From: an uncultured archaeon
GTDB taxonomy: Archaea > EX4484-52 > JAADEF01
Direction: 5' to 3'
Length of the DNA: 64,000 bases
Assembly (NCBI GenBank): GCA_964407715.1
Contig: CAYOWP010000005.1
Coordinates: 12,780 to 76,779, forward strand
Each line of letters starts with the position of its first letter. Within the stretch, counting starts at the first letter, position 1. Below, piece by piece: positions 13,098 through 53,640 of this stretch. Position numbers and translations under genes: made by a program. The notes below the pieces were generated by a model, which worked only from the letters and a program-made list of their open reading frames with translations, was not told the DNA's origin and did not search any database.

Positions 13098-13709
13098 GGT
13101 TAAGAGAATGTGTAGCCTGATAAGAGGCATCTTGAAGCATCTAACCTTAAATTTCTTTAATGAGAACTGGTTAATGGAAGGGATACCTTCTCGATGAGCC
13201 ATAGGAGAGCAGCTAACCTTAAGTGGGTAGCATACTCAAAGAGCTTTGATAATAGCACCATCTTCCCGTTAACCATATTATCAAAAAATTGTTGAGGAGA
13301 GGCATGCATCTTTAAAAGAGCATGTTACAGCAGCTAATCTTTTGAGCGGTTTTGAAGCAGAGCTATCCTTTTTCAAGGCGAGTTACAATGCTGTAAAGCC
13401 TGGGAGAGGGCGATTCTTTTCGCGTTAACTAAAAAATAAAAAATGGTTAACGGGAAGGATAACCTATTCATTCAGCATATTAGAGCAGCTAACCTTTTTG
13501 AAAGGTTAGCATGCTGCAAGACCTTGGCGAAAGTGATATCTTCCCGTTAACCAAATTTTTATTAAATCTTTTATTGGTTAACGGGAGACATACCTTATCA
13601 AAACACGTATTACAGCAGCTAACCTTCGAAAGGGGTTAGTGAGCAGCTAACCTTTTGAGCGGTTAGCATGCTGCAATGTGCTTTGGAAAGCGATTCTCTC
13701 GCGTTAACC
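13098..13709 (+). repeat. Tandem array 1 of hairpin units (about 5 units, 2 partial)
   Basis: Full units at 13169-13274, 13445-13552 and 13576-13709: GGTTAACGGGA...GAGCAGCTAACC-loop-GGTTAGCATGCTG...TCCCGTTAACC. Confidence 0.92.
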
Positions 13710-13787
13710 ATGACCTTAAAAATAAATCAGGTTCATGAGAGGGAGGTTAATTATTTAAATAATTCATTTTCAATAAAATATAAACTT

Positions 13788-14771
13788 ATGGAGATATCAA
13801 TGACTTATTTTTTATCTTTGTTGAGCAGTTTTTTGCTTTTTTTGATGCTTATCTTTTCGGGTATAAAAGCAGATAAGAAAAAGGAAATCAGAAAACTCAT
13901 AATTTCTATTCTTATAACTATGTTGGTAGTATATACATTGAAGTTCTCATTGAGATTTGAAAGGCCTGGAACGGATATTTTATTATTTAAATTTGATAAG
14001 TATTCTTTTCCAAGTACTCATGCAGCTCTTAGCGGAGTTCTTGGATTATATATCTCTACATTATGGTCAATTATTTTAGCAATAATAATAGGCTTGTTAA
14101 GATGCTATCTCAAGGCGCATTATTTGATGGATATTATTGGAGGATGGATTATAAGCTTAGTGATTTATTGTATAGCATTCCGTAAACAAGAAATCATTTC
14201 AAAATCAAAAAAACTTAAGAAGATATTATTAAGAAAAATTCTTCATGTGATTTTTGGTAGTGGAGTGTTGATTTCAGGAATTCTCTTCTATGATTATTTT
14301 CTTTATATAGGCATAGCGATAATAGCGCTATATTTAGCGTTTGTTCATACTCCTATCGGAAGAAAGATATATTTAAAAGTTAAGCGTCCTGATAAAACCT
14401 GGATTGATGTTCTTTCTCCTGTATACATTGTTTTGGGAGCCATGATTTCATATTTATTATACCTGGAGCATATATTTTATATCTCTCTTATATTTGTGGC
14501 TTATATTGATGCATTTACATCTGTTATTGGAAATATATTTCCTTATCTTAGATTGCCAAATAAGAGACATCTTACAGGAACAATAATAGGTAGCATGATA
14601 GCATATATTATAGTCTCTTGGTTTTCATCAGAGATATATGGATTTATAAGCTCACTATCTTTTTTTGTATATGAGGTTGTTTTTCCAAGTTATAAAAAAA
14701 TAAATGATAATTTATTTATTCCTGTTTGGATTGGGTTATGGCTTATGATACTTGAGAGGTTGATATTATGA
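13788..14771 (+). CDS. PAP2 phosphatase fused to a SEC59/phytol-kinase-like membrane domain
   Basis: FPSTHAA and R..LKAHYLMD (PAP2); LLRKILH...D......IG...DNL.IP (kinase-like). Confidence 0.7.
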   Translation: MEISMTYFLSLLSSFLLFLMLIFSGIKADKKKEIRKLIISILITMLVVYTLKFSLRFERPGTDILLFKFDKYSFPSTHAALSGVLGLYISTLWSIILAIIIGLLRCYLKAHYLMDIIGGWIISLVIYCIAFRKQEIISKSKKLKKILLRKILHVIFGSGVLISGILFYDYFLYIGIAIIALYLAFVHTPIGRKIYLKVKRPDKTWIDVLSPVYIVLGAMISYLLYLEHIFYISLIFVAYIDAFTSVIGNIFPYLRLPNKRHLTGTIIGSMIAYIIVSWFSSEIYGFISSLSFFVYEVVFPSYKKINDNLFIPVWIGLWLMILERLIL

Positions 14772-15397
14772 GATATAAGGTTTTAAGTTTAATATCTGGA
14801 GAATTGGACTCTCCTATTGCTGCATATTTATTAGCGAGAAGAGGATTTAAGGTTGATCTCTTACATTTTGATGCGGAATCATATAATGAAGGAATCTTGC
14901 TTTATAAAACCACAAGAATATTTGAGAGATTTAAGAAAAATAATATTGTTAAAAGATTATATGTGGTGCATCAAAAATACCTCCTTGATATATTGACAAA
15001 AGAGGTTCCACCAAATCTACTTATAGTGGTGTGGAGAAGGTTTATGGTTAGAATTGCAGAAAGGATTGCAAAAAGATATGGATATGATTTCTTAGCCACA
15101 GGAGATTCGATAGGTCAAGTAGCAAGTCAAACAATCTATAACATGTACGTGATAGATCAAACAACTGAAATGCACATTTTAAAGCCGCTATTATTATGGA
15201 ACAAAAAAGATATAATAAAAATGAATCACAAATTAGGGATATACGATATTACCTCTATAACGAGTTCGTGTCTTCTTGGCATTCCCCTTAAGTCTAAAAC
15301 ATGCACAAAGCTAAGCGAGATATTAAAGATAGAGGAGAAATTGAATGTTGAAGAACTTGTAGATAAATATAAGGAAAATTTAGAGATATTAGAATAA
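14768..15397 (+). CDS. thiI: ThiI-like PP-loop domain protein lacking the THUMP domain
   Basis: LISGELDSPIAA, TGDSIGQVASQT, LKPLL. Confidence 0.75.
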   Translation: MRYKVLSLISGELDSPIAAYLLARRGFKVDLLHFDAESYNEGILLYKTTRIFERFKKNNIVKRLYVVHQKYLLDILTKEVPPNLLIVVWRRFMVRIAERIAKRYGYDFLATGDSIGQVASQTIYNMYVIDQTTEMHILKPLLLWNKKDIIKMNHKLGIYDITSITSSCLLGIPLKSKTCTKLSEILKIEEKLNVEELVDKYKENLEILE

Positions 15398-16471
15398 CTC
15401 AACATCAAGTGTGAAATCTTCTCCGGTGTTCAATTCTGGAGGAAGAAGATCAGTGTCTATTATAGCAGCAACTTTATATGCATCTGATAATTTTCTACCT
15501 TTTAATCTATCCAAGAAATTGATTCCTTCATTCCATCCAAAATAGCAAGTGATTAGATATTCATTATTTTTGATATTTGTCATCCACACTTTATTCTCAC
15601 TCACGGCAATAAATGTTTCATTCTTAATTTGAGAGATATTGACATCATAAATATAGCTATCGCTAGGAGATAACAAAGAGGTGTTGAAATATAAAACATA
15701 TCCTCTAAAACCATCATAGTTTATATAAGAACTCAAATTACTTACAACCAATATATATTTATCTTTATCCGGCACAGAGGATAAATCATATGTTGATGGA
15801 ATATAGGCAATACCATAAAACTCATTTCCTACTAATCTTCCATTTGTATAATTACACAACTTAAAGGATGAAAGTATGTTTTCATATGAATTTATGGTTA
15901 TGTAAGGATCCTCAAAATTCTCTATTGAGAAATAGGCACATAGCATTTTTTCCAAATTGTATCCCTGCTGATTTATTTTATCTACTATAACATATGAAAT
16001 ATTAAAGCATGCTTTTATTATATCGTATGAGTGCATGGATATTGAGTAATTATTTATCTCCACATCCAAAACAATGTTTTTAAGTGATGCTATCATCTTA
16101 TACTTTGATAGCCACTCTGTGATCGTGCTGTTAATCATAAAATCATTTTTGAATCCATCATAATCCCCATAAATAGATAAATTAAATAATATGTCTTCTG
16201 TGTTATTATAAAACCTACCTTCATAGGTCTCATTATTTATAAGCTCAACTAATGCTCTCTTTAATGCTACCTCAACACTTCTCGGAAAATCACGCTCTAA
16301 ACATTTTTTTATTTCCTTTAAGGTATTTCCTCTATAAAAACTTGATGTGGTGCTCTCAACATATTTCATTTTGATTGATAGGTTATAGGTCAAATATACA
16401 AGCATTATAGATATTGCGATGATAGTAAATAGAGTATACCCTAATCCTTTTTTCTTATTAGTTTTTACCAT
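15389..16471 (-). CDS. Class III signal-peptide (type IV pilin-like) protein
   Basis: KKG/LGYTLFTIIAI; last gene of the pilin-like operon. Confidence 0.7.
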   Translation of the reverse strand: MVKTNKKKGLGYTLFTIIAISIMLVYLTYNLSIKMKYVESTTSSFYRGNTLKEIKKCLERDFPRSVEVALKRALVELINNETYEGRFYNNTEDILFNLSIYGDYDGFKNDFMINSTITEWLSKYKMIASLKNIVLDVEINNYSISMHSYDIIKACFNISYVIVDKINQQGYNLEKMLCAYFSIENFEDPYITINSYENILSSFKLCNYTNGRLVGNEFYGIAYIPSTYDLSSVPDKDKYILVVSNLSSYINYDGFRGYVLYFNTSLLSPSDSYIYDVNISQIKNETFIAVSENKVWMTNIKNNEYLITCYFGWNEGINFLDRLKGRKLSDAYKVAAIIDTDLLPPELNTGEDFTLDVELF

Positions 16472-18360
16472 ACTGTCACCTCCAATCTAACAGGACCATG
16501 GAGATAAGGTATATTACCTATACTTGCTGTTTCATTTTTTATTTCAGTGGCATTGATATATCCTCCAAGAACTGCACGTAATCTTTGAATGGCATCATTT
16601 ATTGCTTCCTCTTTTGAAGGTAATACATTGCCATATCCAACATGTGATGGTATTAAAATAGTATACTCAAATGAACTTTCTGGAAGATAATCACAACCTG
16701 AACATGAATCCTCCATTCTAATATAGTTATCTACAGATACATCGAAGTTGACTGGATCAATGTAAATAGTGGAGGGAATGCCTCGTGGAAGATGAGAGCT
16801 GAAAACCCGAGTTGTAGGTATTGCGCTGCTCCACACATCAACATCAATAGTATAACTGAAAAGCTGGGCAACATGTAGGAATGTGGAAAGCAAAGTATTA
16901 TCATTGAAATTTATGGTATATGTTTTTGGATTTTCTTTATTACCTCCTAAGAGATTGGAGATTGTTATGTCTATTTTTCCATAATAGAGGGAGGTTTCAT
17001 TGTAGGTATAATTTAAGAATACATATGTTGATCCATATGGATCATTCTCTGGATCAGAATATATCTCAGTATATCCATCTCCAGTAAAGTCATCTCCATA
17101 TGTATTGGCATATACCACTATATAATTTGTACCTTGCTGGGATACAGGTGTTAAATCATAATAGAGATCCATATTTTTTGATGGATGTATAATTTCATCA
17201 ATTAGATTTCCATTCACATATACTCTTACATCCCAATTATACCACTGCCAATCTTCCCATGACCACCACCACCCTACATCCTCTATATCTCTTAAGGAAA
17301 GATGAAAGGTTACATTATTGATATGCGAATTTAAAGGTATATAATATTCCATTGTAGCCCATACGCCTGTTTTTCTATTTAGTGTTTCATTAGAAAGAAC
17401 ATCCTCATAATACACATACTTTTCAACATTTTTCTTTTCCTCATAAAATGAATCATCACTATATGTTATTTCGATTCTGCTACCAGGATGTACATGTGCA
17501 TTATACTGCGGATTTTTAAATCTTAGTGTCAAGGTGTTCCATCCATGGTGAATATGAGGTTTTAGATCCACATATCCAAACATTGCTCTTCCTGTTGCTG
17601 CTAATTCATTCCACAACCAAACAATATCATCTTTTATATTAACTCCATTGATTGATACTGCATTAAGATCACTTGAGCTTCTTCCTTTATGGATTGAGAT
17701 ATAGAATATTGCTGATGATAAATTTTCAGGATACTGCTCATAATAAAATTTCTTTGTTATTGTTAACCATCCTCCTTCATTTCCTGCCCCTTCTGGAGAG
17801 ATAGGAAATACTAATGTTGTATTTTTCTTTATTTTTGTAGCAAATGCTTTTGCTACATATCCCAATGGCTCCTTTGTTTCTTCATAGCCTGTAACAAAAG
17901 TATATGCTTTTGATATGTATTCAGATGATGTGTTTGAGGTTGAATAAACAATAAACTCTTTTGTGCTTGTTGAGAGGGTTATATTTATATAAAAATATTT
18001 TGTTAAGTTTGGATAGAGATAATCTATGAGATTTTTTATGAGGGTGTAGTTATTTTTATTCCATAACAAGACAATAATCTCATCAATTGACTTGTTATAT
18101 AATACTTCTTTATCAATATTACATGTTGAGGATATCTCATTCTGATATGTACTTGGCAGTGATGAGAACTTAATTTCGTGTAGAGTGGTTATTATATCAT
18201 GCGCCAATAGATTATTCTTCTTTTCTTTTATATAGGCATAGATGTTTTCGCTGCTTTCATTATAATAATATATGAATAATCCAAAAATAAAGATACTAAG
18301 CAAAGATAAAGCCATGATAGCATCATATGTGAATATTATTCCTCTTCTATTTCCAAACAT
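16465..18360 (-). CDS. Large class III signal-peptide adhesin-like protein
   Basis: RRG/IIFTYDAIMAL; beta-rich extracellular body. Confidence 0.7.
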   Translation of the reverse strand: MFGNRRGIIFTYDAIMALSLLSIFIFGLFIYYYNESSENIYAYIKEKKNNLLAHDIITTLHEIKFSSLPSTYQNEISSTCNIDKEVLYNKSIDEIIVLLWNKNNYTLIKNLIDYLYPNLTKYFYINITLSTSTKEFIVYSTSNTSSEYISKAYTFVTGYEETKEPLGYVAKAFATKIKKNTTLVFPISPEGAGNEGGWLTITKKFYYEQYPENLSSAIFYISIHKGRSSSDLNAVSINGVNIKDDIVWLWNELAATGRAMFGYVDLKPHIHHGWNTLTLRFKNPQYNAHVHPGSRIEITYSDDSFYEEKKNVEKYVYYEDVLSNETLNRKTGVWATMEYYIPLNSHINNVTFHLSLRDIEDVGWWWSWEDWQWYNWDVRVYVNGNLIDEIIHPSKNMDLYYDLTPVSQQGTNYIVVYANTYGDDFTGDGYTEIYSDPENDPYGSTYVFLNYTYNETSLYYGKIDITISNLLGGNKENPKTYTINFNDNTLLSTFLHVAQLFSYTIDVDVWSSAIPTTRVFSSHLPRGIPSTIYIDPVNFDVSVDNYIRMEDSCSGCDYLPESSFEYTILIPSHVGYGNVLPSKEEAINDAIQRLRAVLGGYINATEIKNETASIGNIPYLHGPVRLEVTVW

Positions 18361-19695: not shown

Positions 19696-19794
19696 CTAAG
19701 TTATATAAACTTTTCATAGCGATTATGAAGCAAGTAACCTCTCAACAATGTTAACCTACTCCAAAACCTTTCGAATAGTCTAGCTTCCCATTAA

Positions 19795-20041
19795 CAAATT
19801 GTTCAATAATTTTTTGATGAGGATTTATACTCAGTCAATGAGCAGCAGTAGAGCAGCTAACCTTTTGAAGAGGTTAGCATGCCACAAAACCTGTAGTAAT
19901 AGCGATTTTTTCCGGTTAACAAAATCATTTAAAATGGTTAACGGGAAAACATAGCCCCTATTCAAAGGGTTAACTTGCTCTCATCCGCTTCTTTAAGAGG
20001 CTATTTTTCCGCTTAACAATAGAGAATTATTGGATAATGCC
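19795..20041. mobile_element. MITE-like element 3 (element 2 minus one internal unit), preceded by a degenerate arm at about 19725-19795
   Basis: Degenerate left TIR ATTGTTCAATAAT, right TIR ATTATTGGATAATGCC; near-identical to 10872-11083. Confidence 0.85.
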
Positions 20042-20091
20042 AATAAAAAGATAGAAATTTATTTATATCTTACCCTACTTTAAATATTATT

Positions 20092-20529: not shown

Positions 20530-20553
20530 TTTTTTGTATGAAGGGTAATCAAA

Positions 20554-20873: not shown

Positions 20874-20997
20874 GGGGCGGTAGCTCAGCCTGGGAGAGCG
20901 CCAGACTGAAGACAACTTGCAAAGAAAATATGAGAATATCTTAGCAAGGCACTTGGCAGATATCTGGTTGTCGCGGGTTCGAATCCCGCCTGCCCCA
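20874..20997 (+). tRNA. tRNA-Phe(GAA) with a 50-nt intron at 37/38 (20912-20961)
   Basis: Acceptor GGGGCGG/CTGCCCC, anticodon stem CCAGA/TCTGG, GGTTCGAATCC. Confidence 0.92.
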
Positions 20998-21063: not shown

Positions 21064-21191
21064 AGCCCCGGGAGGGATTCGAACCCCCGACCACGTGATT
21101 TCTTGCCATTCTGAAAAGGTTACGAGTATCGCGCTTCCTTGCTTCTGAGCAAGGTTACAAGTCACGCGCTCTACCGCTGAGCTACCGGGGC
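21064..21191 (-). tRNA. tRNA-Thr(TGT) with a 56-nt intron at 37/38 (21100-21155)
   Basis: Acceptor GCCCCGG/CCGGGGC, anticodon stem CGTGA/TCACG, canonical BHB (CUUG/CAAG). Confidence 0.93.
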
Positions 21192-22001: not shown

Positions 22002-22009
22002 TTGCTTTA

Positions 22010-25119: not shown

Positions 25120-25194
25120 TGGTCCCCGAGGGATTCGAACCCTCGACCTCCACGTTATCAGCGTGGCGCTCTAACCAAGCTGAGCTAGGGGACC
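25120..25194 (-). tRNA. tRNA-Ile(GAT)
   Basis: GGTCCCC acceptor, CCACG-CTGATAA-CGTGG anticodon arm, GGTTCGAATCC. Confidence 0.96.
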
Positions 25195-29495: not shown

Positions 29496-29628
29496 GTCAT
29501 TGTCCAATGATATATTTTGAGAAATTGGGTTAACGGGAAGCATAGCCCTATTCAAAAGGGTTAAACCGCTATAAGTGCTATTTGCGCGTTAAATTTCTGC
29601 TTAACAATAAGAATTATTGGACAAAGCA
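29496..29628. mobile_element. MITE-like element 4
   Basis: Degenerate TIRs GTCATTGTCCAAT / ATTGGACAAAGCA; perfect 9-bp flanking duplication TATTAACAG. Confidence 0.85.
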
Positions 29629-31291: not shown

Positions 31292-31354
31292 AAAGCATCA
31301 AACACATAGTTATCCCTCCACACCCTCACATTTGATCAGCTATCCTTCAGAAAT

Positions 31355-32428
31355 GTTAACTGCTACACAACCACTCTATTGAGTTATGTTCTCCGCGACC
31401 TAAAGCAGCTGATCTCCTTGAGAGGGTTAGCTGCTTCCTACACGCATCAATGGACAGGATATGCCTCGAGGTAACCAGATTAAGAAATGGTTAACAGGAA
31501 GGAGATATATTCACCACAGGTTTTAAGGCAGCCAACCAGCTTGAGGGTTAGCTGCTTCATACATGAATCAAAAGGTCAGCTGCTCCAAGATACCTAATGG
31601 ATGGGTTACTCCTCCCATTAACCATTTTTTATAATTGGTTAACGGGAAGAAATCGGTATTAACGAGCATCTCATAGCATGCTAACCTTTTTTAAGGTTAG
31701 CTGCTCATTAACCGCTTTATTAGGTTACCTGCTATAATGCGGCTAATTGATAAAGTGTGGTTCCCGTTAACCAGATTTTTTATTTTTAATAAAAATGGTT
31801 AACGGGAGGTATCACTTTCTCAACAAACATTGCAGCATGCTAACCTTTTTTTAAGGTTAGCTGCTCATTAACTGCTTTATTAGGTTAGATGCTTTGCTAT
31901 GGTTCCTTGATAAGGTATACTTTCCGTTAACCATTTTTATTCTTTTTATTACTGGTTAACAGGAAAACTCGCTAATACAAAGACATTACAGCATAGTAAC
32001 CTCTCCTGGAGGTTAGCTGCTCTAATGTGCTATTGAGAAGGGTATACTTCCCATTAACCAGATTTTAAAAATGGTTAACTGGAAAACTCGCTAATACAAA
32101 GGTCTCGCAGCATGCTAACCTTTTTTAAGGTTAGCTGCTCTGCTATGGCTCATTGTGAAGGTATACTTCCCCTTAACCATTTTTTAATTTGGTTAACTGG
32201 AAGAAATCGCTTTACCAAAGCATATCACAGCATGGTAGCCGCATAAAAAGGTTAGCTGCTCTGATATACTTTGGAAGAGGTATGATGTCCCTTAACCAAA
32301 TTATTTTAAAAGATAAAAAATAGTTAACGGGAGAAACTCGCTAATATAAAGGCATTACGGCATACTGACCTTTATAAAGGATATCTGCTCTAATACACTG
32401 AAGGAATAGGATAACCTTCCCATTAACC
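31355..32428 (-). repeat. Tandem array 2 of hairpin units (8 units)
   Basis: Units about 31355-31476 (degenerate), 31489-31623, 31637-31772, 31797-31932, 31954-32059, 32073-32178, 32191-32297, 32322-32428, separated by 12-25 bp AT-rich linkers. Confidence 0.95.
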
Positions 32429-32585
32429 ATTTGCAGCATGCATCCTTCTGTTATAACTAAAAAATAATAAAAAATAATTATTTAAATGTTATATGTTCAT
32501 ATATTAATATATTAAGATATTAGTATATGAAAATGTTGATATAAAGATATATTTTTAAATCAAATCAAGGTGTGGAGGGATATAA

Positions 32586-33125
32586 ATGGAATGGGAAATA
32601 AAAATCCATAATGTCGTAGCCTCTCTAAATATCCAAAACAAAATTCCTCTTGTGAGGATTGCAAATAATCTTGAAGGTGTTGAGTATGAGCCTGATCAGT
32701 TTCCTGGACTGGTGCTGAGAATAGATGATCCAAAATCTGCTGCCCTGATGTTTAGTAACGGAAAAATAATAAGCACAGGGACAAAATCAGTAAAACAAGC
32801 AAATGATGCAATTTCTCGTTTATTAGAAATATTTGATGAGTTATCAATTCCTTATAATAATACAAAATATAATATTGATAATGTGGTTGCATCAACACAT
32901 GTAGGCAAAGAGTTGAATTTAACAAAAATTGCATGGGCTATGGAAGAATCTGAATATGAGCCTGATCAATTTCCAGGGCTGGTTTATAGACAACATGATA
33001 CTGGCGTAGTATTTCTATTATTTAGGACAGGTAAGATTGTATGTACTGGGGCTAAATCTGAAGAGCAGATATATGAGAGTTTTAAGAAGCTTTATACAAA
33101 ATTAAAAGAGATAGGAGAGATCTAA
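32586..33125 (+). CDS. tbp: TATA-box-binding protein (paralog 1)
   Basis: Two repeats of NVVAS...EYEPDQFPGLV. Confidence 0.96.
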   Translation: MEWEIKIHNVVASLNIQNKIPLVRIANNLEGVEYEPDQFPGLVLRIDDPKSAALMFSNGKIISTGTKSVKQANDAISRLLEIFDELSIPYNNTKYNIDNVVASTHVGKELNLTKIAWAMEESEYEPDQFPGLVYRQHDTGVVFLLFRTGKIVCTGAKSEEQIYESFKKLYTKLKEIGEI

Positions 33126-33162
33126 ACACTATCCTAAAGTATTAAAGGGGGATAGATAATCT

Positions 33163-33561
33163 ATGGAAACCACACTTAAAGAAGCCAAGCAATATAAAAA
33201 AGGAGATTTTATACTTATAGATGATACAGTATGCAGGGTAGTTGAGGTTTCAATCTCTAAACCAGGGAAGCATGGCTCTGCTAAAGCAAGAATTGTTGCT
33301 GTTTCTCTTTTAGATGGAAGGAAAAAGGAACTCATAAAGCCAGGTGATTCTAAGGTACCAGCACCTATAATAGAAAAGAAAGATGGGCAAGTTATAATGT
33401 TATATGATAAACGCACAGCTCAAGTTATGGATTTAGAGACTTATGAAACCTTAGACGCTATTATCTCTGAAGATATAGCAGAAAGTATAGAGGAAGGAAT
33501 AAATGTTGAATATTGGAAAATAGGAAACATGAATGTGATTATGCGAGTAAAAAGAGATTAG
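33163..33561 (+). CDS. eif5a: Translation factor a/eIF5A
   Basis: SKPGKHGSAK hypusine motif. Confidence 0.97.
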   Translation: METTLKEAKQYKKGDFILIDDTVCRVVEVSISKPGKHGSAKARIVAVSLLDGRKKELIKPGDSKVPAPIIEKKDGQVIMLYDKRTAQVMDLETYETLDAIISEDIAESIEEGINVEYWKIGNMNVIMRVKRD

Positions 33562-35369
33562 CTCTTTTTTGTAACTATGTTTTTTATTTGTTGTAGTTCC
33601 TCGGGAAGGTGAAGAGCAAGTACTTCTTTTTCTATTTCTTTTGTGAGATACTCTATCTCTCTATCTTTTAAGTGCTGGAATTGCTCATTTTCATGATTAA
33701 GGATTAATTCCACGACTTTCTTTAAATCTTCATAGTTATGTCTTCCATCAATTAAAATGAAATCTGCACCACCTTCATACAATTTAAGTGCCTTTTTGAA
33801 ACTGTTAGACCTGCCTATTATTTTAATATGCTTATTTAAGGATTTTACAGTTGCTAAGCTCTCAGAAAGTTCATTAAAATCTTCTTTTGCGTATATGAAT
33901 ATTTGTGCTTTATCTATATAGATATCTTTTAATATTTCTTCATCATCAATACTGCCAAAGATGACATTATATCCTTCTCTTCTTAACAATCTAACCTGTT
34001 GGATGTCATCACTTAATACAACTATTTTTTCAGGATTTAACTTTTCTAAGAGAATCTTCGTGAATGCATTTATACCATAGATAATGATATGATCACGCAT
34101 TTTATTGCTTGTTATAGCATCCAAGCTTTCCTCTTCTGCTTTATTAGCTATATTTATTTTCTCAAGAAATTCAAAATATCGATATAGCTTTGAGGTTATA
34201 ACCCAATTCCATTGTATCATATATGATGAGAGAAAAGAAGTTATGAAAAATACACCACCTATAATAGAAAGAAGTTCCTTTGTGAGTATTCCAGAATTTA
34301 ATGCTATACCTCCTAGTATAAGAGAGAACTCTGAGGTTTGTGCAAGTGTTATTCCAAGTTGAAGTGAATTCTTTGCATCATTTCCAAAAAGTAGAGAGGG
34401 AATTAGATATAGCATAGGCTTAATAAGAAGTGTGAATATTACAAGTAATGAGGTCAAGATTAAATATTGCGAGCTCAACGAAGCTAAGGACATTTGTAAG
34501 CCTAAAGCAACAAAGAAAAGCACTATAAAGAAATCTCTTAGATGGGCAATTCTTTGAGTGACTCTATATGAATATGGATATACTGCAGCAGCCAGACCTC
34601 CTATGAAACCACCTATTGCAATAGAAAATCCAAATACACTGCTTATTATAGAGAATATGAACAACACGGATAAAGAAAGAAGAAATGTAATGTCAACATT
34701 ATTATAGAAATATTTCATTAGAGGTTTAATAATAAATCTGTTTGATGCTAATGCCAATGCTATGAGTCCTGAACCTTTTAAAATGATATCCAATATGTGA
34801 TATTCTAAAGATGTCTTTTCAGCAGACATAAGAAATGGAATGATTAGAATTACAAGGATATCCTGCATCAGCAAAATACCTAAAGCATTTCTTCCATAGA
34901 TTGTATCTATTGTTCCTTTATCTGATAAATATTTTATTACGATAGCTGTGCTACTAAAAGATAGTGCTATCGCAATGAGAAGCGCTTTCTTAAAAGGTAT
35001 CGAAAACATATATAATAATGCTAAGGTTAAGAGAGAAGTAGTACTTACTTGAATAAGAGTTCCGATAATAGAGAAGCTTAATATATTTTTTATTTTGTCA
35101 ATATCAAACTCCATTCCTATGAGGAACAATAAAAGAGCAATACCCAATTCTGAGATAGAAAGTATAGATTCTTTGTTAAACGCTAAGTTGTGGGAGGAGA
35201 GATAATTTATCAAAAGTCCAACAAGGATATACACAGGAATCATAGGTTGCTTTAGATATGATGCAATCAATCCTAAAATTGTTGCTAACAATATTATAAT
35301 GCCGAGTTCCAATAATAACCCAGATTCCAACACCTTCAACGACAACATTTCGTGAATATAAAAAACCAT
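33558..35369 (-). CDS. Kef-type K+/H+ antiporter (CPA2) with a TrkA-N domain
   Basis: ELGIALLLFLIGME, FSSTAI, QDIL, SEFS; C-terminal KTN domain. Confidence 0.9.
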   Translation of the reverse strand: MVFYIHEMLSLKVLESGLLLELGIIILLATILGLIASYLKQPMIPVYILVGLLINYLSSHNLAFNKESILSISELGIALLLFLIGMEFDIDKIKNILSFSIIGTLIQVSTTSLLTLALLYMFSIPFKKALLIAIALSFSSTAIVIKYLSDKGTIDTIYGRNALGILLMQDILVILIIPFLMSAEKTSLEYHILDIILKGSGLIALALASNRFIIKPLMKYFYNNVDITFLLSLSVLFIFSIISSVFGFSIAIGGFIGGLAAAVYPYSYRVTQRIAHLRDFFIVLFFVALGLQMSLASLSSQYLILTSLLVIFTLLIKPMLYLIPSLLFGNDAKNSLQLGITLAQTSEFSLILGGIALNSGILTKELLSIIGGVFFITSFLSSYMIQWNWVITSKLYRYFEFLEKINIANKAEEESLDAITSNKMRDHIIIYGINAFTKILLEKLNPEKIVVLSDDIQQVRLLRREGYNVIFGSIDDEEILKDIYIDKAQIFIYAKEDFNELSESLATVKSLNKHIKIIGRSNSFKKALKLYEGGADFILIDGRHNYEDLKKVVELILNHENEQFQHLKDREIEYLTKEIEKEVLALHLPEELQQIKNIVTKKS

Positions 35370-35415
35370 AATATTTTTATTTTTTGAAATAAATAAATTA
35401 TTTTTTAATTAAAAG

Positions 35416-35596
35416 GGCATTGTCCAATAATCCCTTATTAACAAAATTTTGTTAAGCGGAAAAGTAACCTTTTAAAGAAGCGTATTAGAGCAGCAAACCT
35501 TGTAGAGCTAATGCAATTCAAATGGTTAACTGCTCTCATGCGCTTCTGTGAGAGTTTACGTTTCCGCTTAACAATAAGGAATTATTGGACAATGCC
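35416..35596. mobile_element. MITE-like element 5 (fully palindromic form)
   Basis: Perfect 16-bp TIR GGCATTGTCCAATAAT; flanked by the direct repeat TAATTAAAAG on both sides. Confidence 0.92.
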
Positions 35597-35659
35597 TAAT
35601 TAAAAGTACATGAAAGCACAAACTGTTAAGTAGGTATATTAAAGGAGATACGACTTCTT

Positions 35660-36108
35660 CGATAAGCAAGACCTTCGGAAAGGCAATTTCTTTGCGTTAA
35701 CAATTTTTTAAAATTTGGTTAATGGGCAACATAGCCTAATAAGAGGCAATTGCGGAGCAGCTAACCTTTATGAGAGGTCACTATCCTGCAATGCCTTTAT
35801 ATCGGCGAATTTCTCGCGTTAACCATTTTTATTAAAAATAAAAAAATCTGGTTAACAGGAACCACACTTTATCAATTAGCCGCATTATAGCAGCTAACCT
35901 TAAAAAAAGGTTAGCATGCTATGAGATGCTCGTTAATGACGAATCCCTCCAGTTAACCAATTATAAAAAATGGTTAACCCGAGGAGTAACTCATACATGA
36001 GGTATCTTGGAGCAGCTGACCTTTTGATGCGTGTAGGAAGCAGCTATAAGAAATATGGCTAAGGAGAAACATGACTTATCAGCGAGCAATATTGGAGCAG
36101 CTAACCTT
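35660..36108 (+). repeat. Tandem array 3 of hairpin units (about 4 units); partly an inverted copy of array 2
   Basis: Units 35717-35824, 35850-35958, 35972-about 36108; 35821-36045 matches the reverse complement of about 31545-31803. Confidence 0.9.
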
Positions 36109-36236
36109 TTTTTGTATGTGTGCATGCTGTGATGTAAAATGAATCTTTTTTATGCGAATCAAAATCTTTATAAATAGAATTTTGTAAAAATTTTAACTTA
36201 TAATGTGTTCTTGAGAAGTTTTTGATGGTGAAATGA

Positions 36237-43096: not shown

Positions 43097-43150
43097 AATT
43101 ATTGAATATACTGCTATTTTTAAAGATTTAATTAAAATGCTAATTTGAAA

Positions 43151-43385
43151 GGCATTACTAAGTGCTTCTTTAAGAGGATACCTTTTAACGAGGAATTATA
43201 CCCAGTCAATGAGCAGCAGTAGAGCAGCTAACCTTTTGAAGAGGTTAGCATGCTACAAAACCTGTAGTAATAGCGATTTCTTCCAATTAACAAAATCATT
43301 TAAAATGGTTAACAGAAAACATAGCCCTATTCAAAGGGTTAACTTGCTCTCATGCGCTTCTTTAAGGGATTACCTTTCAGCTTAG
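43151..43385. mobile_element. Element 6: TIR-less or truncated copy of the element 2 type
   Basis: 43160-43370 is near-identical to about 10835-11045. Confidence 0.85.
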
Positions 43386-43427
43386 GAGAAATCTAACTAA
43401 AAATTATTAAAAATATCTCTTTCAGTT

Positions 43428-43883: not shown

Positions 43884-44294
43884 ATGAGAGTTATTTATTG
43901 GCATGTGAATTCTCTTAAGGTTGTTCACACACAGAAGGCATTAAAAAGTGCCGAAGATATCAATGAGAAAACCAAAAGATTTGAGAATGGAGTTGTATGT
44001 TTGATATCCTTAGAGGAGGGGGATCAAGATAAAGAAAATCTCTTTGAAATGTTTTATGAGGATCTCATGAAATATGCCAATCAAATTAATGTTAAAAAGT
44101 TCTTTTTGTATCCATATGCGCATCTAAGCAACAATCTTTTGAAGCCATCATTAAGTAAGGAATTATTTTATTCCTTAGTTAAATTCTTAAAAAATAAAGG
44201 ATTAGATGTTGATTATGGTGAGTTTGGATGGTATAAAGAATTTAAGGTTCATGTTAAGGGACATCCTTTAGCAGAGCTAAGCAGGTCGTTCTAA
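43884..44294 (+). CDS. Stand-alone archaeal threonyl-tRNA synthetase editing domain
   Basis: LYPYAHLS, FGWYKEF....KGHPLAELSRSF. Confidence 0.92.
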   Translation: MRVIYWHVNSLKVVHTQKALKSAEDINEKTKRFENGVVCLISLEEGDQDKENLFEMFYEDLMKYANQINVKKFFLYPYAHLSNNLLKPSLSKELFYSLVKFLKNKGLDVDYGEFGWYKEFKVHVKGHPLAELSRSF

Positions 44295-48294: not shown

Positions 48295-48313
48295 AATTCC
48301 CTATGAATAAAGT

Positions 48314-49171
48314 ATGAAAAAACTTAAAGAGGAAATAAGAAGGAAATTAAATAAAGAAGTGAATTTAGGATTTGAGATTATTGGTGATATAGCAATAATA
48401 GAAGATATGAGCAACAATCTTACTAATGAGGATTTACAAAAAATCTCAGAAATAATTAGGAGTTATAATCCTAATGTTAATGTTGTTGCTCTAAAAATGG
48501 AGGATGTTGGAGGAATCTATAGAACTGCGAGACATAAAATTATCAAGGTGTGGAACAGAGAGGATTTTCTTAAGGAGCTACCTAAAACATACAGGGATCT
48601 CACAGAGAAAGAAACATTACATAAGGAACATGGAGTAAGAGTTCTTCTAAATATAGATACTGTTTATTTCTCATCAAAGCTAGGATATGAGAGAAAAAGA
48701 ATAGAGAAGATGGTTAGAGATGGAGAAAGAATTTTTTTGCCATTCGCTGGTGTTGGGATATATGCTCTTGTTATTGCCAAGAAAAAGCAAGTGGAGATAG
48801 ATGCAGTGGAGATTAACCCATATGCCTGCGAATACATGAGAAAAAATATAGAGATAAATAAAATAAGAGGTAAGATAAGCGTGTTTTGTATGGATGTAAA
48901 ATTATTTTTAGAAAACAAAGATATATTAAATTATGATAGAATAATCATGCCTGCACCAAAGGATGCTCCATCCTTTCTAGAGGAGATAGTTATCAAATCT
49001 AAAAAGGATACATGGATACATTATTACTTTTTTGCAGATAAAGAAGAAATCTCAAAGGAAAACATAGAAAGAAAATTTTCACATTTACCTATACGCATTC
49101 TTGGATTCAGAAAAGCTGGAAGCATAGGAACAAACAAATACAGAGTAGCTGTTGATGCTGTGAGAGTGTAA
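48314..49171 (+). CDS. trm5: Trm5/Tyw2-family tRNA methyltransferase
   Basis: IIGDIAI, E.LHKEHG...L..D.VYFS..L..ER, FAGVG, DRIIMP. Confidence 0.88.
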   Translation: MKKLKEEIRRKLNKEVNLGFEIIGDIAIIEDMSNNLTNEDLQKISEIIRSYNPNVNVVALKMEDVGGIYRTARHKIIKVWNREDFLKELPKTYRDLTEKETLHKEHGVRVLLNIDTVYFSSKLGYERKRIEKMVRDGERIFLPFAGVGIYALVIAKKKQVEIDAVEINPYACEYMRKNIEINKIRGKISVFCMDVKLFLENKDILNYDRIIMPAPKDAPSFLEEIVIKSKKDTWIHYYFFADKEEISKENIERKFSHLPIRILGFRKAGSIGTNKYRVAVDAVRV

Positions 49172-49176
49172 GTTTC

Positions 49177-49845
49177 TCAATCACATTTACTATAATTGCA
49201 TTCGGGATTGATACATACAAAACAGCCATTCTCAACTTTTAGAGTTTTCATGTTGCATTCAGGGCATATCTTTAAATTCAACATCTCCTCTTCACTAAGA
49301 TTCACATTTTCTGTGATAGAGCTCATGAGAGATGGAGATGCGAATTTTATTAACGACATGTCATGTTCCTTTTTAATGAGACCTATTTCTTCAAAGAACC
49401 TCTCTATCACATCTGCAATTTCTGCATAGATGCTATGGATATATTTTCCATCTTTGAAGTATCCTCCATTTGGATCATGCACGCTTTTGAGTTCTTCCAA
49501 GATGAACACTGGATTAGAAGTCTTTCTAAAGATTGCAGAGATTAACCTGGTAAGCACTGTAAACTCAGCAGCTTTACTTAGATCCTTACTATTGATGAAT
49601 ATCTCATAAGGTCTCCTTTTCCCATCCACTTCTACATATCCTATTGTGATAAAAATGCTATGCTTAACAAATCTGCTTTTAAGTTTATATACCTTTGCAT
49701 CAATAACATCAGGCCTCTCGAAGCTTTTCTCATGCAATTTTTTATCCTCTATACTATGTTGCATCTTCTCATGAGGAACATCTTTATTCTCCTGCTTTTC
49801 TTTTACCTCTAATATTTCCCCTACTCTTATGACCATATTCCTCAC
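49177..49845 (-). CDS. NrdJb-like C-terminal subunit of class II RNR (TSCPD domain plus zinc ribbon)
   Basis: RPDVIDAKVYK, PYEIFIN, CPEC...ENGC..C..C.YSKC. Confidence 0.85.
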   Translation of the reverse strand: MRNMVIRVGEILEVKEKQENKDVPHEKMQHSIEDKKLHEKSFERPDVIDAKVYKLKSRFVKHSIFITIGYVEVDGKRRPYEIFINSKDLSKAAEFTVLTRLISAIFRKTSNPVFILEELKSVHDPNGGYFKDGKYIHSIYAEIADVIERFFEEIGLIKKEHDMSLIKFASPSLMSSITENVNLSEEEMLNLKICPECNMKTLKVENGCFVCINPECNYSKCD

Positions 49846-49860
49846 CTCTTTATCTCGCTC

Positions 49861-52377
49861 TTAATTCAATTTTATTAGTCCTTTTTTATAAGCATGATAA
49901 ATTGTATAAAGTTTTCCATCCAACACTATGATGTCATCTCCTTTAACCTCCATTTCATTACCATCTTTTGTTATTATCTTGAATTTCTTATTCTTAAATT
50001 TTTGAAACTCTGTAGTTTTACCTTCAACACTCAATATAGGAAATCTACTTCCATCTCTATAGATTGTAACTCCTTTTAATCCCATTTTCCATGCATAGAG
50101 ATATAAGTTGCTTAGTAACTCTGGTTCAATATCTTCAGGTAAATTGATGGTTGAAGAAATGCTATGATCCACGTATTTTTGTGCTATTGCCTGAATCTCA
50201 ATTCTTTTGAATGGATCTATATTATGCGCAGTCCTAAAGAAATGTTCAGGCAAAATTTTTCTTAATTCTTCTTCATTCTTGCTTTCCTGAATCTCATCAT
50301 TTAATCCATACATATCAATATATGCTTGCACCGTTGAATGAAATATCCTAAAGAACTTATTGCCAACAGATTCTGTCCTTCTGGTGTAATATAAGGCAAA
50401 TATTGGCTCGATGCCACCGCTTACACCGATATAATGTTTTCCATTATATTTAAAGCCTAGTACGATATTTGAGATTGTCCCTGTAGGTGCTATAGAAAGC
50501 AATGCCGAATTTCTCAAACCATGTTTCTTTATCTCCTTTCTCACATGCTCATCCAGCACTTCATTAAAGAAAGGATTTTTAGAATATTTTTCATAATCAA
50601 ATATCTCAACTTTTCCTTTTTCCTTTGCCAATTTTGCAGAGGTTAGATATGCTTCATTGGCAATAGTTTTCATAACTTTTTCAAATGTTTTCATTCCTTC
50701 ATCACTGTCATATCCATATCCTAATTGGTTAAGCATATCTGCAATACCTACTACTCCCAATCCAATTCTTCGAGTTATCTTGGCAGTGTCTCTTTGCTTT
50801 TTCAAAGGATTCATAAAGGAATTCCATGTTGTTATGTTATCCAAAAATCTTACAGCGATGTTTATAGTATATTTAAGCAAGTCAAAATCTATTGAGGCAT
50901 TTGGCTTATATCCATTTCTAACAAACCTTGATAGGTTAATGGATCCAAGATTGCATGCTCCTCCATCCTCCAATGGTACCTCACCACATGGATTTGTAGT
51001 TACAATCTTTCTTCCTATGTAATCTGAGGGGGAATACTTTGTCATTTTATTCCAAAATATCAATCCAGGTTCTGCGGTTTTATAATTGCTCTCTATGAAC
51101 TCATCCCAAATATCCCTTGCTTTGACTAATCTTCTTATCTCACCTGTTTGCTCAGATGAGAAGTATAATAAGAAATCTCCTGAGTATCTTATCGCTAAAT
51201 CATAATCATTATTATTTAAAGGTATTACTAAGTCACCAAATACATCCCTTTTATTTATATCATCTAACTCATCTTTTGTTATTGTTTTATTATATTCTGC
51301 TCTCAAAAACGTATTTAACTCATGTAGATTCTCAAATACCCCTATTAACTCATACTCATCTATATTTTTGGATGGGATTCCATAAGAATAGTGCACATCT
51401 TTTATATTATCCACTCTCATAATTATCTTTTTATTTTTCTTTTTATAAACTAAGATTTTATCTCTGCCAAAGGTATTCTCTTCCTCAACCGCTTTTAAGA
51501 ACTCATCGCTGGCTTTGATACTTATGTTGGCAAATCTTATTTGCGTGTTTTCCATAACCGCTTTTCTTATCATTTCAAGAAGTTTCTCATCTTTAACACC
51601 TGCTTCCCATTGAATTTGGTTAACAATCTGGTTTGTAACCCAATTTGGGATTCTTTTTGAATTTATGAAATCCAAGATATCAGGATGCTTTACATCCAAG
51701 GTTATCATTAAAGCACCTCTCCTACCATGTTGTCCTATAAGACCTGTGGTAAGAGAATAGAGATCCATGAAACTTACAGCTCCTGTTGATTTGTTTGCGG
51801 CATTATGCACTATAGAGTCTTTGGGTCTTAAAACAGAGATATCTATTCCTATCCCTCCACCATAAGAATATGTCCTTGCAGCTTCATATGCTGCGGTATA
51901 GATACCTTCTATGCTATCATCCTCAATAAGAGTGACAAAGCAATTTGCTAAGGTTTTTAATCTATAAAGATCACCAGCCCCTGCTATTACCCTTCCTCCT
52001 GGAATAAATCTTCCCTCATATATCTCAACATAGAATTTTTTTGCATACTCTTTTGCTTTTTCATAATCTTCCTCAACAGCAGCCACAAACGAGGCAATTC
52101 TTATGAATACCTCTTCGGGTCTTGTTTCTATTAATTTTCCTTCCTTATTTCTTAAATAATACTTTTTTTCATAGATACTCTTCGCAAGCTCATTATCTCC
52201 AAGATAATTTTCGTGTTGGGGTAATTCTCCGCTAATAAAGAGTTCATATAAGTATCTATATAACTTCTTATATCTTTCCAAATATTTTTTGTTGATTACC
52301 TTAGATAACTTTCCTTCATATTCAAACATCTTTTCAATTTCCTCAGGAATTGATATCATTTTTTCTCGCTGAGACAT
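49861..52377 (-). CDS. nrdJ: Class II (B12-dependent) ribonucleotide reductase, catalytic subunit
   Basis: LANCF, RRGA, TNPCGEVPL, CNLGSINL, IAPTGT, GIEP, KGVTIYRDGSR. Confidence 0.95.
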   Translation of the reverse strand: MSQREKMISIPEEIEKMFEYEGKLSKVINKKYLERYKKLYRYLYELFISGELPQHENYLGDNELAKSIYEKKYYLRNKEGKLIETRPEEVFIRIASFVAAVEEDYEKAKEYAKKFYVEIYEGRFIPGGRVIAGAGDLYRLKTLANCFVTLIEDDSIEGIYTAAYEAARTYSYGGGIGIDISVLRPKDSIVHNAANKSTGAVSFMDLYSLTTGLIGQHGRRGALMITLDVKHPDILDFINSKRIPNWVTNQIVNQIQWEAGVKDEKLLEMIRKAVMENTQIRFANISIKASDEFLKAVEEENTFGRDKILVYKKKNKKIIMRVDNIKDVHYSYGIPSKNIDEYELIGVFENLHELNTFLRAEYNKTITKDELDDINKRDVFGDLVIPLNNNDYDLAIRYSGDFLLYFSSEQTGEIRRLVKARDIWDEFIESNYKTAEPGLIFWNKMTKYSPSDYIGRKIVTTNPCGEVPLEDGGACNLGSINLSRFVRNGYKPNASIDFDLLKYTINIAVRFLDNITTWNSFMNPLKKQRDTAKITRRIGLGVVGIADMLNQLGYGYDSDEGMKTFEKVMKTIANEAYLTSAKLAKEKGKVEIFDYEKYSKNPFFNEVLDEHVRKEIKKHGLRNSALLSIAPTGTISNIVLGFKYNGKHYIGVSGGIEPIFALYYTRRTESVGNKFFRIFHSTVQAYIDMYGLNDEIQESKNEEELRKILPEHFFRTAHNIDPFKRIEIQAIAQKYVDHSISSTINLPEDIEPELLSNLYLYAWKMGLKGVTIYRDGSRFPILSVEGKTTEFQKFKNKKFKIITKDGNEMEVKGDDIIVLDGKLYTIYHAYKKGLIKLN

Positions 52378-52518
52378 TATCTATCACCCCTTTCGCTCGA
52401 GTTTAATTACAAGATGGTAATATATAATAACACAACATATTGTGCAAAAACAATTTAATACATCAATATATTGTTATTTCATCATTTAAATATTTTTCTT
52501 TCTAAAAAAATATATATT

Positions 52519-53058
52519 TTAATCGTTATTTTCCTCCAAATACTTCTCATATGGCATTTCTTTGATTTCTTCTATTGTGTTTAAGTATCTATAAAGAACA
52601 AATAAAAGGTCAGATAATCGATTAATATAAGTTATTATCTCTCCCTGAATGGGTTTTTCTTTTGAGAGAGTGATAAGTCTTCGTTCTGCTCTTCTACATA
52701 CTACTCTTGAGATATTAATGATGGCTGCACTTTCGCTTGATATTTCAATCAAGAAGGTATTGATTGGTTTAAGTATCTTATTATACTTATTTATTCTTTG
52801 TTCTAACCATTCAATTGTTTTTTTAGAAATCTTACCGCTATACTTAGAAATTTCTGGTATGAGATTATGAATATCATTCATAATTTTGAGAATGTCCTTT
52901 TTTACTCTTTCATCTTGTATCTTTGAATATGCATATCCTAAATAAGCCAAAAGCTCATCTAAAGTGCCATATACTTCTATCTCAATATTGTCTTTGTATA
53001 CTCTCTTACCACTCACTAATGATGTCTGCCCCTCATCCCCTGTCCCAGTAGAAATCAT
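52519..53058 (-). CDS. pduO: Cob(I)alamin adenosyltransferase (PduO-type)
   Basis: TGTGDEGQTSL, YGTLDEL, RVVCRRAER, YINRLSDLLF. Confidence 0.93.
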   Translation of the reverse strand: MISTGTGDEGQTSLVSGKRVYKDNIEIEVYGTLDELLAYLGYAYSKIQDERVKKDILKIMNDIHNLIPEISKYSGKISKKTIEWLEQRINKYNKILKPINTFLIEISSESAAIINISRVVCRRAERRLITLSKEKPIQGEIITYINRLSDLLFVLYRYLNTIEEIKEMPYEKYLEENND

Positions 53059-53140
53059 AAAGAATAATTAGAAAATCTTTATCTTTTAAAATGTTTCTAC
53101 TCGATCCTTTCCGAGAGAACGGCTTGATTAAATAAAAAAT

Positions 53141-53640
53141 GGTTAACGGGAAGCATACCTTCACGATGAGCCACATTAGAGCAGCTAACCCTCACGATAG
53201 CGTTTGTAAAACAGCTAACCCTTTGATGAGGTTACCATGCTGGGATGTGCTTAGTAAAGCGATTTCCTCCCGTTAACCAATCATAAAAAGAATAATAATG
53301 GTTAAAGGGAAACCTAACCAATTAATAAAGCACATCAGAGCAGCTAACCTTTCTAAGCGTTTTGGAAGCAGCTAACCTTTAAAAAAAAGGTTACCATACT
53401 GCAAACCTTTTGTATTAGCGATTTCTTCCCGTTAACCATTTTTTAAATAAAAAATTTGGTTAAGGGGAAGCATACTTTATTCATAGCACATCAGAGCAGC
53501 TAACCTTTCTAAGCGTTTGTAAAGCAGCTAACTTTTAGAAAAGGTTACCATGCCGCGAGACCTTGGTGATAGCGATAATCTCCATTTACCCAGTTAACAA
53601 AACACATAACATTCATGAGCGTTTTGCAGAAGCTAACATC
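53141..53640 (+). repeat. Tandem array 4 of hairpin units (3 long-class units plus a partial one)
   Basis: Units 53141-53278, 53300-53437 and 53458-about 53590, each with the extra GCAGCTAACC module. Confidence 0.92.

Follow-up and report, generated by a model that had tools for sequence, protein, structure and literature searches.

The question raised by this locus is what kind of element forms four tandem arrays of hairpin units between the genes of an uncultured archaeon. The stretch that was analysed, referred to here as the window, comprises 64,000 nucleotides of contig CAYOWP010000005.1 (assembly GCA_964407715.1). A sequence-only reading of the window had found no matching annotation class for the arrays, and had proposed a protein-recognised RNA or single-stranded DNA (ssDNA) structure, or a multi-site DNA-binding scaffold, under selection. 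Following our analyses we favour, with a probability of roughly 0.6, a reading of the arrays as clusters of lineage-specific, non-coding, compound-palindromic repeat DNA, selfish or neutral, of the kind represented by clusters of repetitive extragenic palindromes (REPs), bacterial interspersed mosaic elements (BIMEs) and miniature transposable elements with inverted repeats (MITEs). This reading is suggested by the placement of the arrays in gaps of all gene arrangements, the absence of the family from the nearest relatives, the presence of units within MITEs that make target duplications, the turnover of units between populations, and a block common to two of the arrays in inverted form.

The four arrays, with about 20 units between them, are seen in the sequence as had been described. 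A unit consists of two inverted, non-identical half-units of ~50 nt with a 9-nt loop between them, followed by an A/T linker of 10-25 nt. The outer arms read GGTTAACGGGAAG ... CTTCCCGTTAACC, and the inner hairpin reads GAGCAGCTAACC-(loop ~9 nt)-GGTTAGC-A-TGCTG, with GGTTAGCATGCTG as its right strand and a conserved one-base bulge in its stem. Unit length is bimodal (106-111 nt and 131-139 nt), and in the long form the central hairpin is duplicated, giving a second GCAGCTAACC-loop-GGTTAG mini-hairpin. The earlier description has to be extended by these two size classes and by three further unit copies located in MITE-type elements. The arms are far more frequent than expected: GGTTAACGGGAAG at <=3 mismatches has 50 occurrences versus 6.4 expected (none of 100 shuffles scored as high), and GAGCAGCTAACC at <=2 mismatches has 37 versus 2.2. 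In the window, 19 array units were detected at E<0.01 by a covariance model built from 10 window units; with 14 metagenome loci added, the model found 88 distinct units. The strand scores of this model agree with the earlier view that each window array has one orientation, and because each unit scores ~40-75 bits better on one strand than on the other, the units themselves are oriented. Together the arrays span 2,663 bp, or 4.2% of the window and 22% of the DNA that lies outside open reading frames (ORFs); including the related MITEs, the whole family reaches ~4.3 kb, or 35% of the non-ORF DNA. The arrays had been described as free of ORFs, and none of more than 50 aa lies wholly inside one of them, but a small membrane-protein-like ORF (12928-13197, + strand, 89 aa) enters the degenerate first unit of array 1. 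Given this overlap with the array 1 remnant, the C-terminal ~30 residues of that ORF are encoded by repeat DNA.

The sequence boxes of the unit are held at a preferred spacing. On the left arm the outer and inner TAAC motifs are 42 nt apart in 32 of 49 units, 41 nt in 10 and 40 nt in 5, and on the right arm the boxes are 44 nt apart in 30 of the 49 units and 45 nt in 13. The previously stated distance of 40-42 bp therefore reflects a strong mode, with a play of ±2 nt. The middle segments between the boxes, which had been presented as highly diverged stretches of a fixed 18 nt or so, are in fact 24-27 nt and 23-26 nt long, vary by ±2 nt and have a mean pairwise identity of ~0.53-0.55, so these segments are drifting rather than unrelated. 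Because the middles are ~45% diverged over 24-27 nt and their length variation is about what a normal ratio of indels to substitutions would give, the geometry alone was not counted as evidence of selection.

Conservation differs strongly from box to box. Mean pairwise identity is 0.94 for the left inner box AGCAGCTAACC, 0.84 for the right outer arm, 0.78 for the right inner box (the pairing partner of AGCAGCTAACC), 0.76 for the left outer arm and 0.49 for the loop. That AGCAGCTAACC is better kept than the strand it pairs with places the constraint on sequence, arm by arm, and not on base pairs. The conservation of the boxes, along with the sharp mode of their spacing, is compatible with, but no proof of, their being recognised sequence-specifically, whether a mobilising enzyme or a host protein does so. 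Of the multi-site scaffold that had been proposed, the constrained boxes and their spacing stand. The family also holds 39 of the 42 GTTAAC sites in the window, leaving 3 outside versus 9.2 expected under a maximal-order Markov model. This scarcity could hint weakly at restriction, past or ongoing, directed at the site, which is of HpaI/HincII type; as a basis for a restriction-linked mechanism, 3 versus 9.2 is too weak.

Whether a fold is selected had to be asked separately. The units fold much better than their shuffles (z down to -7.9), but any inverted repeat does so, and four further fold tests were therefore made. A structure-blind MAFFT alignment of 41 short units was scored against a 32-pair structure comprising outer, middle and inner helices, which was supplied by hand since an RNAalifold consensus from 10 units contained only 8 invariant pairs. 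Paired cells made up 78.0% versus 76.7% in shuffles, a value reached by 3 of 500 shuffles, and calibration of this test indicated that related sequences give such values without structural constraint. Double-change pairs numbered 12 versus 10.7 (140 of 500 shuffles reached this), which is no convincing covariation among these units, and further pair types numbered 33 versus 33.7. The 344 cells that are not Watson-Crick pairs consist of 172 non-wobble mismatches, 61 G.T and 111 A.C, and with G.T not in excess over A.C there is no wobble signature on either strand. Two mismatches recur across the family: outer position 7 holds G.G in 19 of 41 units, and the inner stem of 18 of 41 contains C.C. 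In an alignment-free test the left and right middles of a unit paired slightly better with each other than with the partners from other units over the inner-proximal 14 nt (z=-2.6, p~0.007), and the outer-proximal segments showed no such excess. Pairing of the middles across the hairpin, to which attention had been drawn before, is thus real in some units, such as 32191-32297, but slight across the family. A search of Rfam gave nothing above threshold, with miRNA-like hairpins far below it. We read the repeat as neither an RNA gene nor a selected fold. The absence of significant covariation had been named beforehand as the result that would tell against selection on an RNA or ssDNA fold, and this proposal is given up.

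The arrays themselves are changing. Identity is 0.712 within arrays versus 0.685 between them, and 41 of 59 units have their nearest relative in a different array. On one metagenome locus, L009, a two-unit block of (136+22+108+22) nt is present twice with identical linkers, as expected from a recent local duplication. The array on this locus could be compared with its orthologue on L011, from a second vent population. The flanks and a downstream IF-2B-family gene are 99.3-100% identical between the two, and so are units 1-4 (99-100%). Unit 5, however, is only 89% identical (12 of 109 positions differ), unit 6 and its linker are missing in L011 by a deletion that ends within the common TCCCGTTAACC box, and unit 7 is 94.5% identical, differing by a 24-nt short/long indel and 6 substitutions. 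A patch with 11% change, set in sequence that is otherwise 99% identical, suggests that paralogous units served as donors of a replacement by ectopic conversion, and does not suggest point mutation. The comparison of this one array shows that change takes the form of gain or loss of one unit with its linker, duplication or deletion of 24-28 nt of the central hairpin (converting short into long units and the reverse), and clustered patches of substitution. The degenerate or truncated edges of the window arrays (13098-13160, 13290-13430, 31354-31475, 35972-36135 and 53592-53640) are also what would be expected of recombining tandem arrays.

Sequence has passed between arrays as well. Positions 35732-36046 of array 3 match 31887-31549 of array 2 in inverted orientation, with 78% identity over 345 nt, and two linkers in this common block read alike except for one A in a run. 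Unit 35850-35958 is 91% identical to 31637-31772 outside a 27-nt insert. The inclusion of linkers in the inverted block suggests that copying or conversion between arrays involves blocks of several units. Relative to each other, arrays 2 and 3 are inverted, and they bracket a 3.2-kb block with the genes for TBP, aIF5A and a Na+/H+ exchanger (31354-36135 including the arrays). Logan contigs of run X1 contain joints of opposite strands at 31941/35597 and 32220/35518, with sides of 31-34 nt within repeats. Because the joints have sides that measure 20-47 nt and fall within repeats, they were not taken as evidence for an inversion of the block; an inversion polymorphism of the array 2-array 3 block is possible. 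Logan contigs are broken in every array.

Having three unit copies outside the arrays, we looked at the elements that carry them. The terminal inverted repeat (TIR) GGCATTGTCCAATAATT / AATTATTGGACAATGCC bounds the five capped MITEs of 131-336 bp listed in Table 1, and target duplications of 9-10 bp (TATTAACAG and TAATTAAAAG) are present at two of them (29497-29627 and 35417-35595). A hairpin unit is found inside two capped MITEs and inside one element without recognisable caps (43100-43395). These three copies are 92-96% identical to each other (96% between 10858-10966 and 43183-43292), and their left outer arms are degenerate. In run X1, contig depth over the MITE caps, including those of 35417-35595, is 10-20x that of unique DNA. 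The inverted repeat of IS903 (GGCTTTGTTGAATAAATCG) appears to resemble the MITE cap, and IS903 makes 9-bp duplications; no IS element was found in the 160 kb described below.

The genomic context of the arrays follows no single pattern. Gaps between divergent, tandem and convergent genes all contain arrays, which run sense or antisense to their neighbours. Array 2, which Tandem Repeats Finder (TRF) reports with a period of 119, 2.9 copies and 76% matches, is flanked by a DHH/DHHA1 gene (+) and a TBP gene (+). Array 3 is placed between two divergent genes, that of the Na+/H+ exchanger (-) and pyrG (+), and both genes flanking array 4 (TRF period 156, 1.9 copies, 80% matches) are on the - strand. 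Array orientation differs within the window and also within 14 kb on metagenome contig L004. A terminator role was rejected because arrays are also present in divergent promoter gaps and array 1 is sense to the genes, and no promoter or terminator role fits all the arrays.

The window has a G+C content of ~32% and an archaeal gene set: two TBP genes, aIF5A, aIF2alpha, L31e, S19e, Cdc48, RNR, PyrG, Rad50/Mre11, SepF and MinD. Two tRNA genes that presumably carry introns likewise speak for an archaeon. A search of 185,579 species genomes returned a closest PyrG relative that is 67% identical, and the other 78 PyrG matches kept are 51-57% identical and come in about equal numbers from DPANN archaea (Woese-, Pace-, Aenigm- and Nanoarchaeota) and from bacteria of the candidate phyla radiation (CPR; Patescibacteria-type). 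Considered together, the PyrG relatives and the archaeal genes point to a DPANN-type archaeon. The window stretch is contained in five DNA metagenome runs (three from hydrothermal vents, one from sediment and one marine). The co-occurring metagenome contig L004 encodes reverse gyrase, a marker of thermophily (342-3659; helicase and Topo IA, 1105 aa), and Topo VI is encoded on a co-occurring contig. The host is read as an uncultured, probably thermophilic archaeon of DPANN type from hydrothermal vents.

The exact core pattern of the repeat is present on 14 stretches, which belong to 10 metagenome contigs out of two JGI data sets and two ENA assemblies. These stretches resemble the window in their repeats only, and their gene sets complement it (FtsZ, S7, S12, Cdc6, Hef, Topo VI, aminoacyl-tRNA synthetases). 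By exact matching, the pattern gave no match in the 185,579 reference species genomes and none in IMG/VR viral contigs; blastn against plasmids and phages found no match to the family, and in 1.17 Mb from the pyrG surroundings of the 80 nearest relatives the covariance model found none at E<=1. The absence from reference species, viruses, plasmids, phages and the pyrG regions of the nearest relatives suggests that the family is confined to one lineage. Two loci, L005 and L006 (ENA OCTV010017608.1 and OBID01024445.1), were not accepted as members, as each had one exact-pattern match but no covariance-model match. They overlap by 820 nt at 100% identity, their ORFs have no Pfam match, and the pattern match there is probably due to chance, or intragenic, in an unrelated organism. 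On L004 (10029-11398) weak family matches form an inverted pair, 11173-11276 (+) and 11280-11372 (-), immediately upstream of an Orc1/Cdc6 gene.

We then compared the family with known systems. To say that no annotation class matches is too strong, since tandem inverted half-units with a linker, placed in intergenic gaps, are of the REP-cluster/BIME and MITE kind (PMC3733652). Like the REP clusters, BIMEs and REPIN doublets of E. coli and Pseudomonas (PMC3733652, PMC3116915), the family is intergenic, non-coding and present in high copy in one lineage. As in those systems, inverted half-elements give a long imperfect hairpin (a head-to-head dimer), the dimers are tandemly reiterated with a linker, the two types of half-element differ by a bulge or mismatch, and copy number varies between strains. 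However, REPs are palindromes of 20-40 nt (PMC3733652), whereas the half-units here measure ~50 nt and are not themselves palindromic, and the units measure 106-139 nt. Since a REP is defined as a palindrome of 20-40 bp whose stem measures 5-13 bp, only the central hairpin of ~30 nt is REP-sized. No GTAG or CGTC tag was found; the unit ends in GGTTAAC/GTTAACC, and the columns flanking the inner hairpin stand at 0.3-0.7. In a further difference from REP clusters and BIMEs, all units of an array here have the same orientation. A REP/REPIN-RAYT system typically includes a cognate single-copy RAYT gene flanked by units, and no RAYT was found in the DNA examined for this family, which is the window plus the metagenome loci (~160 kb, ~115 ORFs). 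A survey of REPs found them in bacterial phyla only (PMC3733652), whereas the present host is an archaeon. In its workings the family is like REP clusters or BIMEs, but it falls outside the definition of a REP by size and by tag, and so far no RAYT has been seen in these ~160 kb.

Prokaryotic MITEs, including the archaeal SM1-4 of Sulfolobus (PMC2229807), are like the family small, A/T-flanked, non-coding and intergenic, with TIRs, and the capped relatives in the window share with them target duplications of 9-10 bp and nearly identical copies. The array units, in contrast, are uncapped, lack target duplications, lie head-to-tail in arrays of 2-8 and are ~30% mutually diverged, and no transposase was found; TIRs with a target duplication for each copy, which define a MITE, are seen in the capped relatives only.

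The Methanocaldococcus jannaschii repeats MJRE1-3 (Suyama, Lathe & Bork 2005, FEBS Lett 579:5281; cited in PMC2229807) share with the family an archaeal host with ~31-32% G+C, and are likewise old, diverged, palindromic extragenic repeats of ~100 nt that account for several percent of the intergenic DNA; some of them enter coding regions, comparable to ORF 12928-13197 here. The host here is nevertheless of DPANN type and not a methanogen, with DPANN/CPR-like PyrG relatives, and exact matching of the core pattern gave no hit in any reference species genome, M. jannaschii being expected among them as a species representative. On these grounds an initial guess that the window was Methanocaldococcus and the repeats MJRE was dropped. 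To our knowledge, tandem arrays of MJRE have not been described.

Integron attC sites, which alternate with gene cassettes beside an intI tyrosine recombinase gene, are also imperfect palindromes (57-141 bp); their outer and inner boxes are conserved, their centre varies and their extrahelical bases are fixed. Here, however, the units are parted only by the 10-25 nt A/T linkers and follow one another head-to-tail without cassettes, the central hairpin is conserved and not variable, and no integrase was found in the window, so that an attC array was rejected. A CRISPR array, in which identical repeats of 24-48 nt take turns with unique spacers about as long, was rejected, as it had been before, because the arrays contain no unique segments (even the most variable are ~53% alike) and the units are compound palindromes of 106-139 nt. 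As it stands, the family belongs to a familiar kind of repeat, of which it is a well-documented case, and is not a new kind of system.

On the reading as selfish or neutral repeat DNA, events between the conserved boxes, namely unequal recombination, slippage during replication and ectopic gene conversion, would let the arrays expand, contract and exchange sequence. A new locus could be seeded by transposition of a MITE followed by loss of its caps, or else by segmental copying; the seeding of arrays by MITEs is a conjecture. The hairpin potential would be a legacy of inverted-repeat ancestry, and the conservation of the boxes could reflect either recognition by the propagating agent or homogenisation driven by conversion. 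Several points weigh against this reading. A Pfam scan of the ~115 ORFs in the ~160 kb found no transposase, Y1-HUH/RAYT, integrase or reverse transcriptase, and thus no candidate for the agent of dispersal and none of the co-occurring genes that the sequence-only reading had suggested looking for. No target duplication is visible at any array unit, with linkers varying in both length and sequence, and a MITE adjoins only one of the four arrays (array 3). An identity of 0.94 for AGCAGCTAACC versus 0.53 for the middles is unlike pure neutral decay of dead copies and implies some constraint, at whatever level it acts. Finally, no RNA run contained the window stretch or the arrays, a result that does not tell against transcription.

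Perhaps the best surviving alternative, although we think it unlikely, is a domesticated REP/BIME-like platform for a host protein. A lineage-specific DNA-binding protein or a topoisomerase would read the four GGTTARC boxes of each unit, ~42-44 bp or about 4 helical turns apart, and the arrays would serve to organise the nucleoid, to take up supercoiling through the extrusion of cruciforms, or as insulators of nearby genes. Boxes that are far better kept than the sequence between them, in an arm-specific and not a pair-specific manner, and whose spacing has a sharp mode, are in keeping with such a platform, as is the investment of 35% of the non-ORF DNA in a small, gene-dense genome. The concentration of GTTAAC sites in the repeats (39 of 42) with their depletion elsewhere (3 versus 9.2) also agrees with it, and so does the fact that the organism encodes reverse gyrase and Topo VI; the BIMEs of E. 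coli bind gyrase and IHF. However, the family is missing from the nearest relatives and is consequently young and dispensable at the scale of the lineage, and the number and form of units vary between co-occurring populations. The ±2 nt play in spacing would rotate sites by up to ~70 degrees, no consistent link ties the arrays to promoters or to the ends of genes, and no candidate binding protein was identified. Decidedly unlikely, too, is an archaeal counterpart of REPs and BIMEs that the host maintains because it is useful, in which AGCAGCTAACC and the GTTAAC boxes, about 4 helical turns apart, would be read by a putative lineage-specific protein, either a nuclease or recombinase that copies the units or a factor of topology or of the nucleoid in a thermophile with reverse gyrase. 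A DPANN archaeon with a reduced genome would then be retaining a third of its intergenic DNA as such repeats for their usefulness.

It seems improbable that the units are mobile as ssDNA hairpins, in the manner of REPIN/RAYT or IS200/IS605-PATE elements, with a Y1-HUH enzyme from another locus excising the folded single strands and inserting them beside existing copies. Such mobility would account for the single orientation within each array, matched by the 40-75 bits of asymmetry between strands, for the missing target duplications of the array units, and for the fixed bulge and recurrent mismatches of the hairpin; the part duplicated in long units is moreover the REP-sized central hairpin of 30 nt. 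But no Y1_Tnp/HUH protein was found in the 160 kb, and no conserved GTAG, CGTC or other tag stands beside the hairpin, where the columns 5' of the inner box are at 0.3-0.7. The change of orientation on L004 and in the window leaves no strand bias across a replichore. The indel of a whole unit ends in homologous boxes, as recombination predicts, and cut-and-paste would leave the patch of 11% change in one orthologous unit unexplained. That each unit is a small structured RNA gene, or each array a precursor cut into hairpin RNAs of ~110-130 nt, is highly improbable: the units do outfold their shuffles, have a defined orientation and are separated by A/T linkers with T-runs and TATA-like strings, but there is no covariation, half of the mismatches are non-wobble with no wobble excess on the unit strand, no Rfam family matches, orientation relative to neighbouring genes is inconsistent, the strongest T-runs are on the strand opposite to the better-scoring orientation, and the arrays appear in no RNA run.

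Table 1. Hairpin-unit arrays and dispersed elements of the family in the window
Feature	Position	Strand	Composition	Covariance-model score (bits)
Array 1	13098..13709	+	left-half remnant 13098-13160; short unit 13169-13274; degenerate long unit 13290-13430; short unit 13445-13552; long unit 13576-13709	93.5, 30.6, 112.3, 83.0 (all +)
Array 2	31354..32428	-	8 units; degenerate unit 31354-31475	61-109 (all -)
Array 2, long units (n=3)	31489-31623, 31637-31772, 31797-31932	-		
Array 2, short units (n=4)	31954-32059, 32073-32178, 32191-32297, 32322-32428	-		
Array 3	35660..36135	+	right-arm remnant 35660-35702; short units 35717-35824, 35850-35958; truncated 35972-36058; degenerate 36059-36135	88.9, 102 (+)
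Array 4	53141..53640	+	long units 53141-53278, 53300-53437, 53458-53591; then degenerate remnant abutting Vut_1 stop codon	88.8, 86.4, 72.3 (+)
Capped MITE, 336 bp	10747..11082	+	TIR GCATTGTCCAATAATT/AATTATTGGACAATGC; one hairpin unit 10858-10966 and further modules	95.1 (unit)
Capped MITE, 245 bp	19796..20040	+	contains hairpin unit 19813-19921	90.8 (unit)
MITE-type element, no recognisable caps	43100..43395	+	contains hairpin unit 43183-43292	95.9 (unit)
Small capped MITE, 131 bp	29497..29627	+	9-bp direct repeat TATTAACAG on both sides	
Capped MITE, 179 bp	35417..35595	+	direct repeat TAATTAAAAG on both sides; 65 nt from array 3	
Capped MITE, 157 bp	4807..4963	+		36.5 (weak match)
Capped MITEs or fragments with related modules	6390-6467 and 61509-61608			

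Some other features of the window were recorded along the way. Two tRNA genes at 20874-20997 (+) and 21064-21191 (-) have lengths of 124-128 nt and presumably carry introns (Rfam, 55.7 and 58.9 bits); ARAGORN misses both and finds only a tRNA-Ile at 25120-25194. The two TBP paralogues are at 32586-33125 and 58561-59157 (Pfam TBP, E=2e-57 and 9e-47), and array 2 is followed directly downstream by the first of them. At 43884-44294 a separate gene codes for an archaeal ThrRS editing domain on its own (tRNA-Thr_ED, 136 aa), beside a GtrA-like membrane protein and an NFACT protein. The region 1159-6315 contains AAA_14/DUF4143, methyltransferase and MazF-like toxin genes in addition to the capped MITE at 4807-4963.

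DPANN archaea have small, gene-dense genomes that are usually held to be poor in repeats. In the present archaeon a third or so of the non-coding DNA belongs to one home-grown palindromic family, whose turnover is visible when co-existing vent populations are compared. The family is useful for tracking strains, and it causes assembly breaks in metagenome-assembled genomes of this kind. It also offers a natural case for the origin and persistence of REP/BIME-like repeats without a known RAYT and, if it is true that the conserved boxes are protein sites, it would be the first host system of the REP/BIME type in Archaea.

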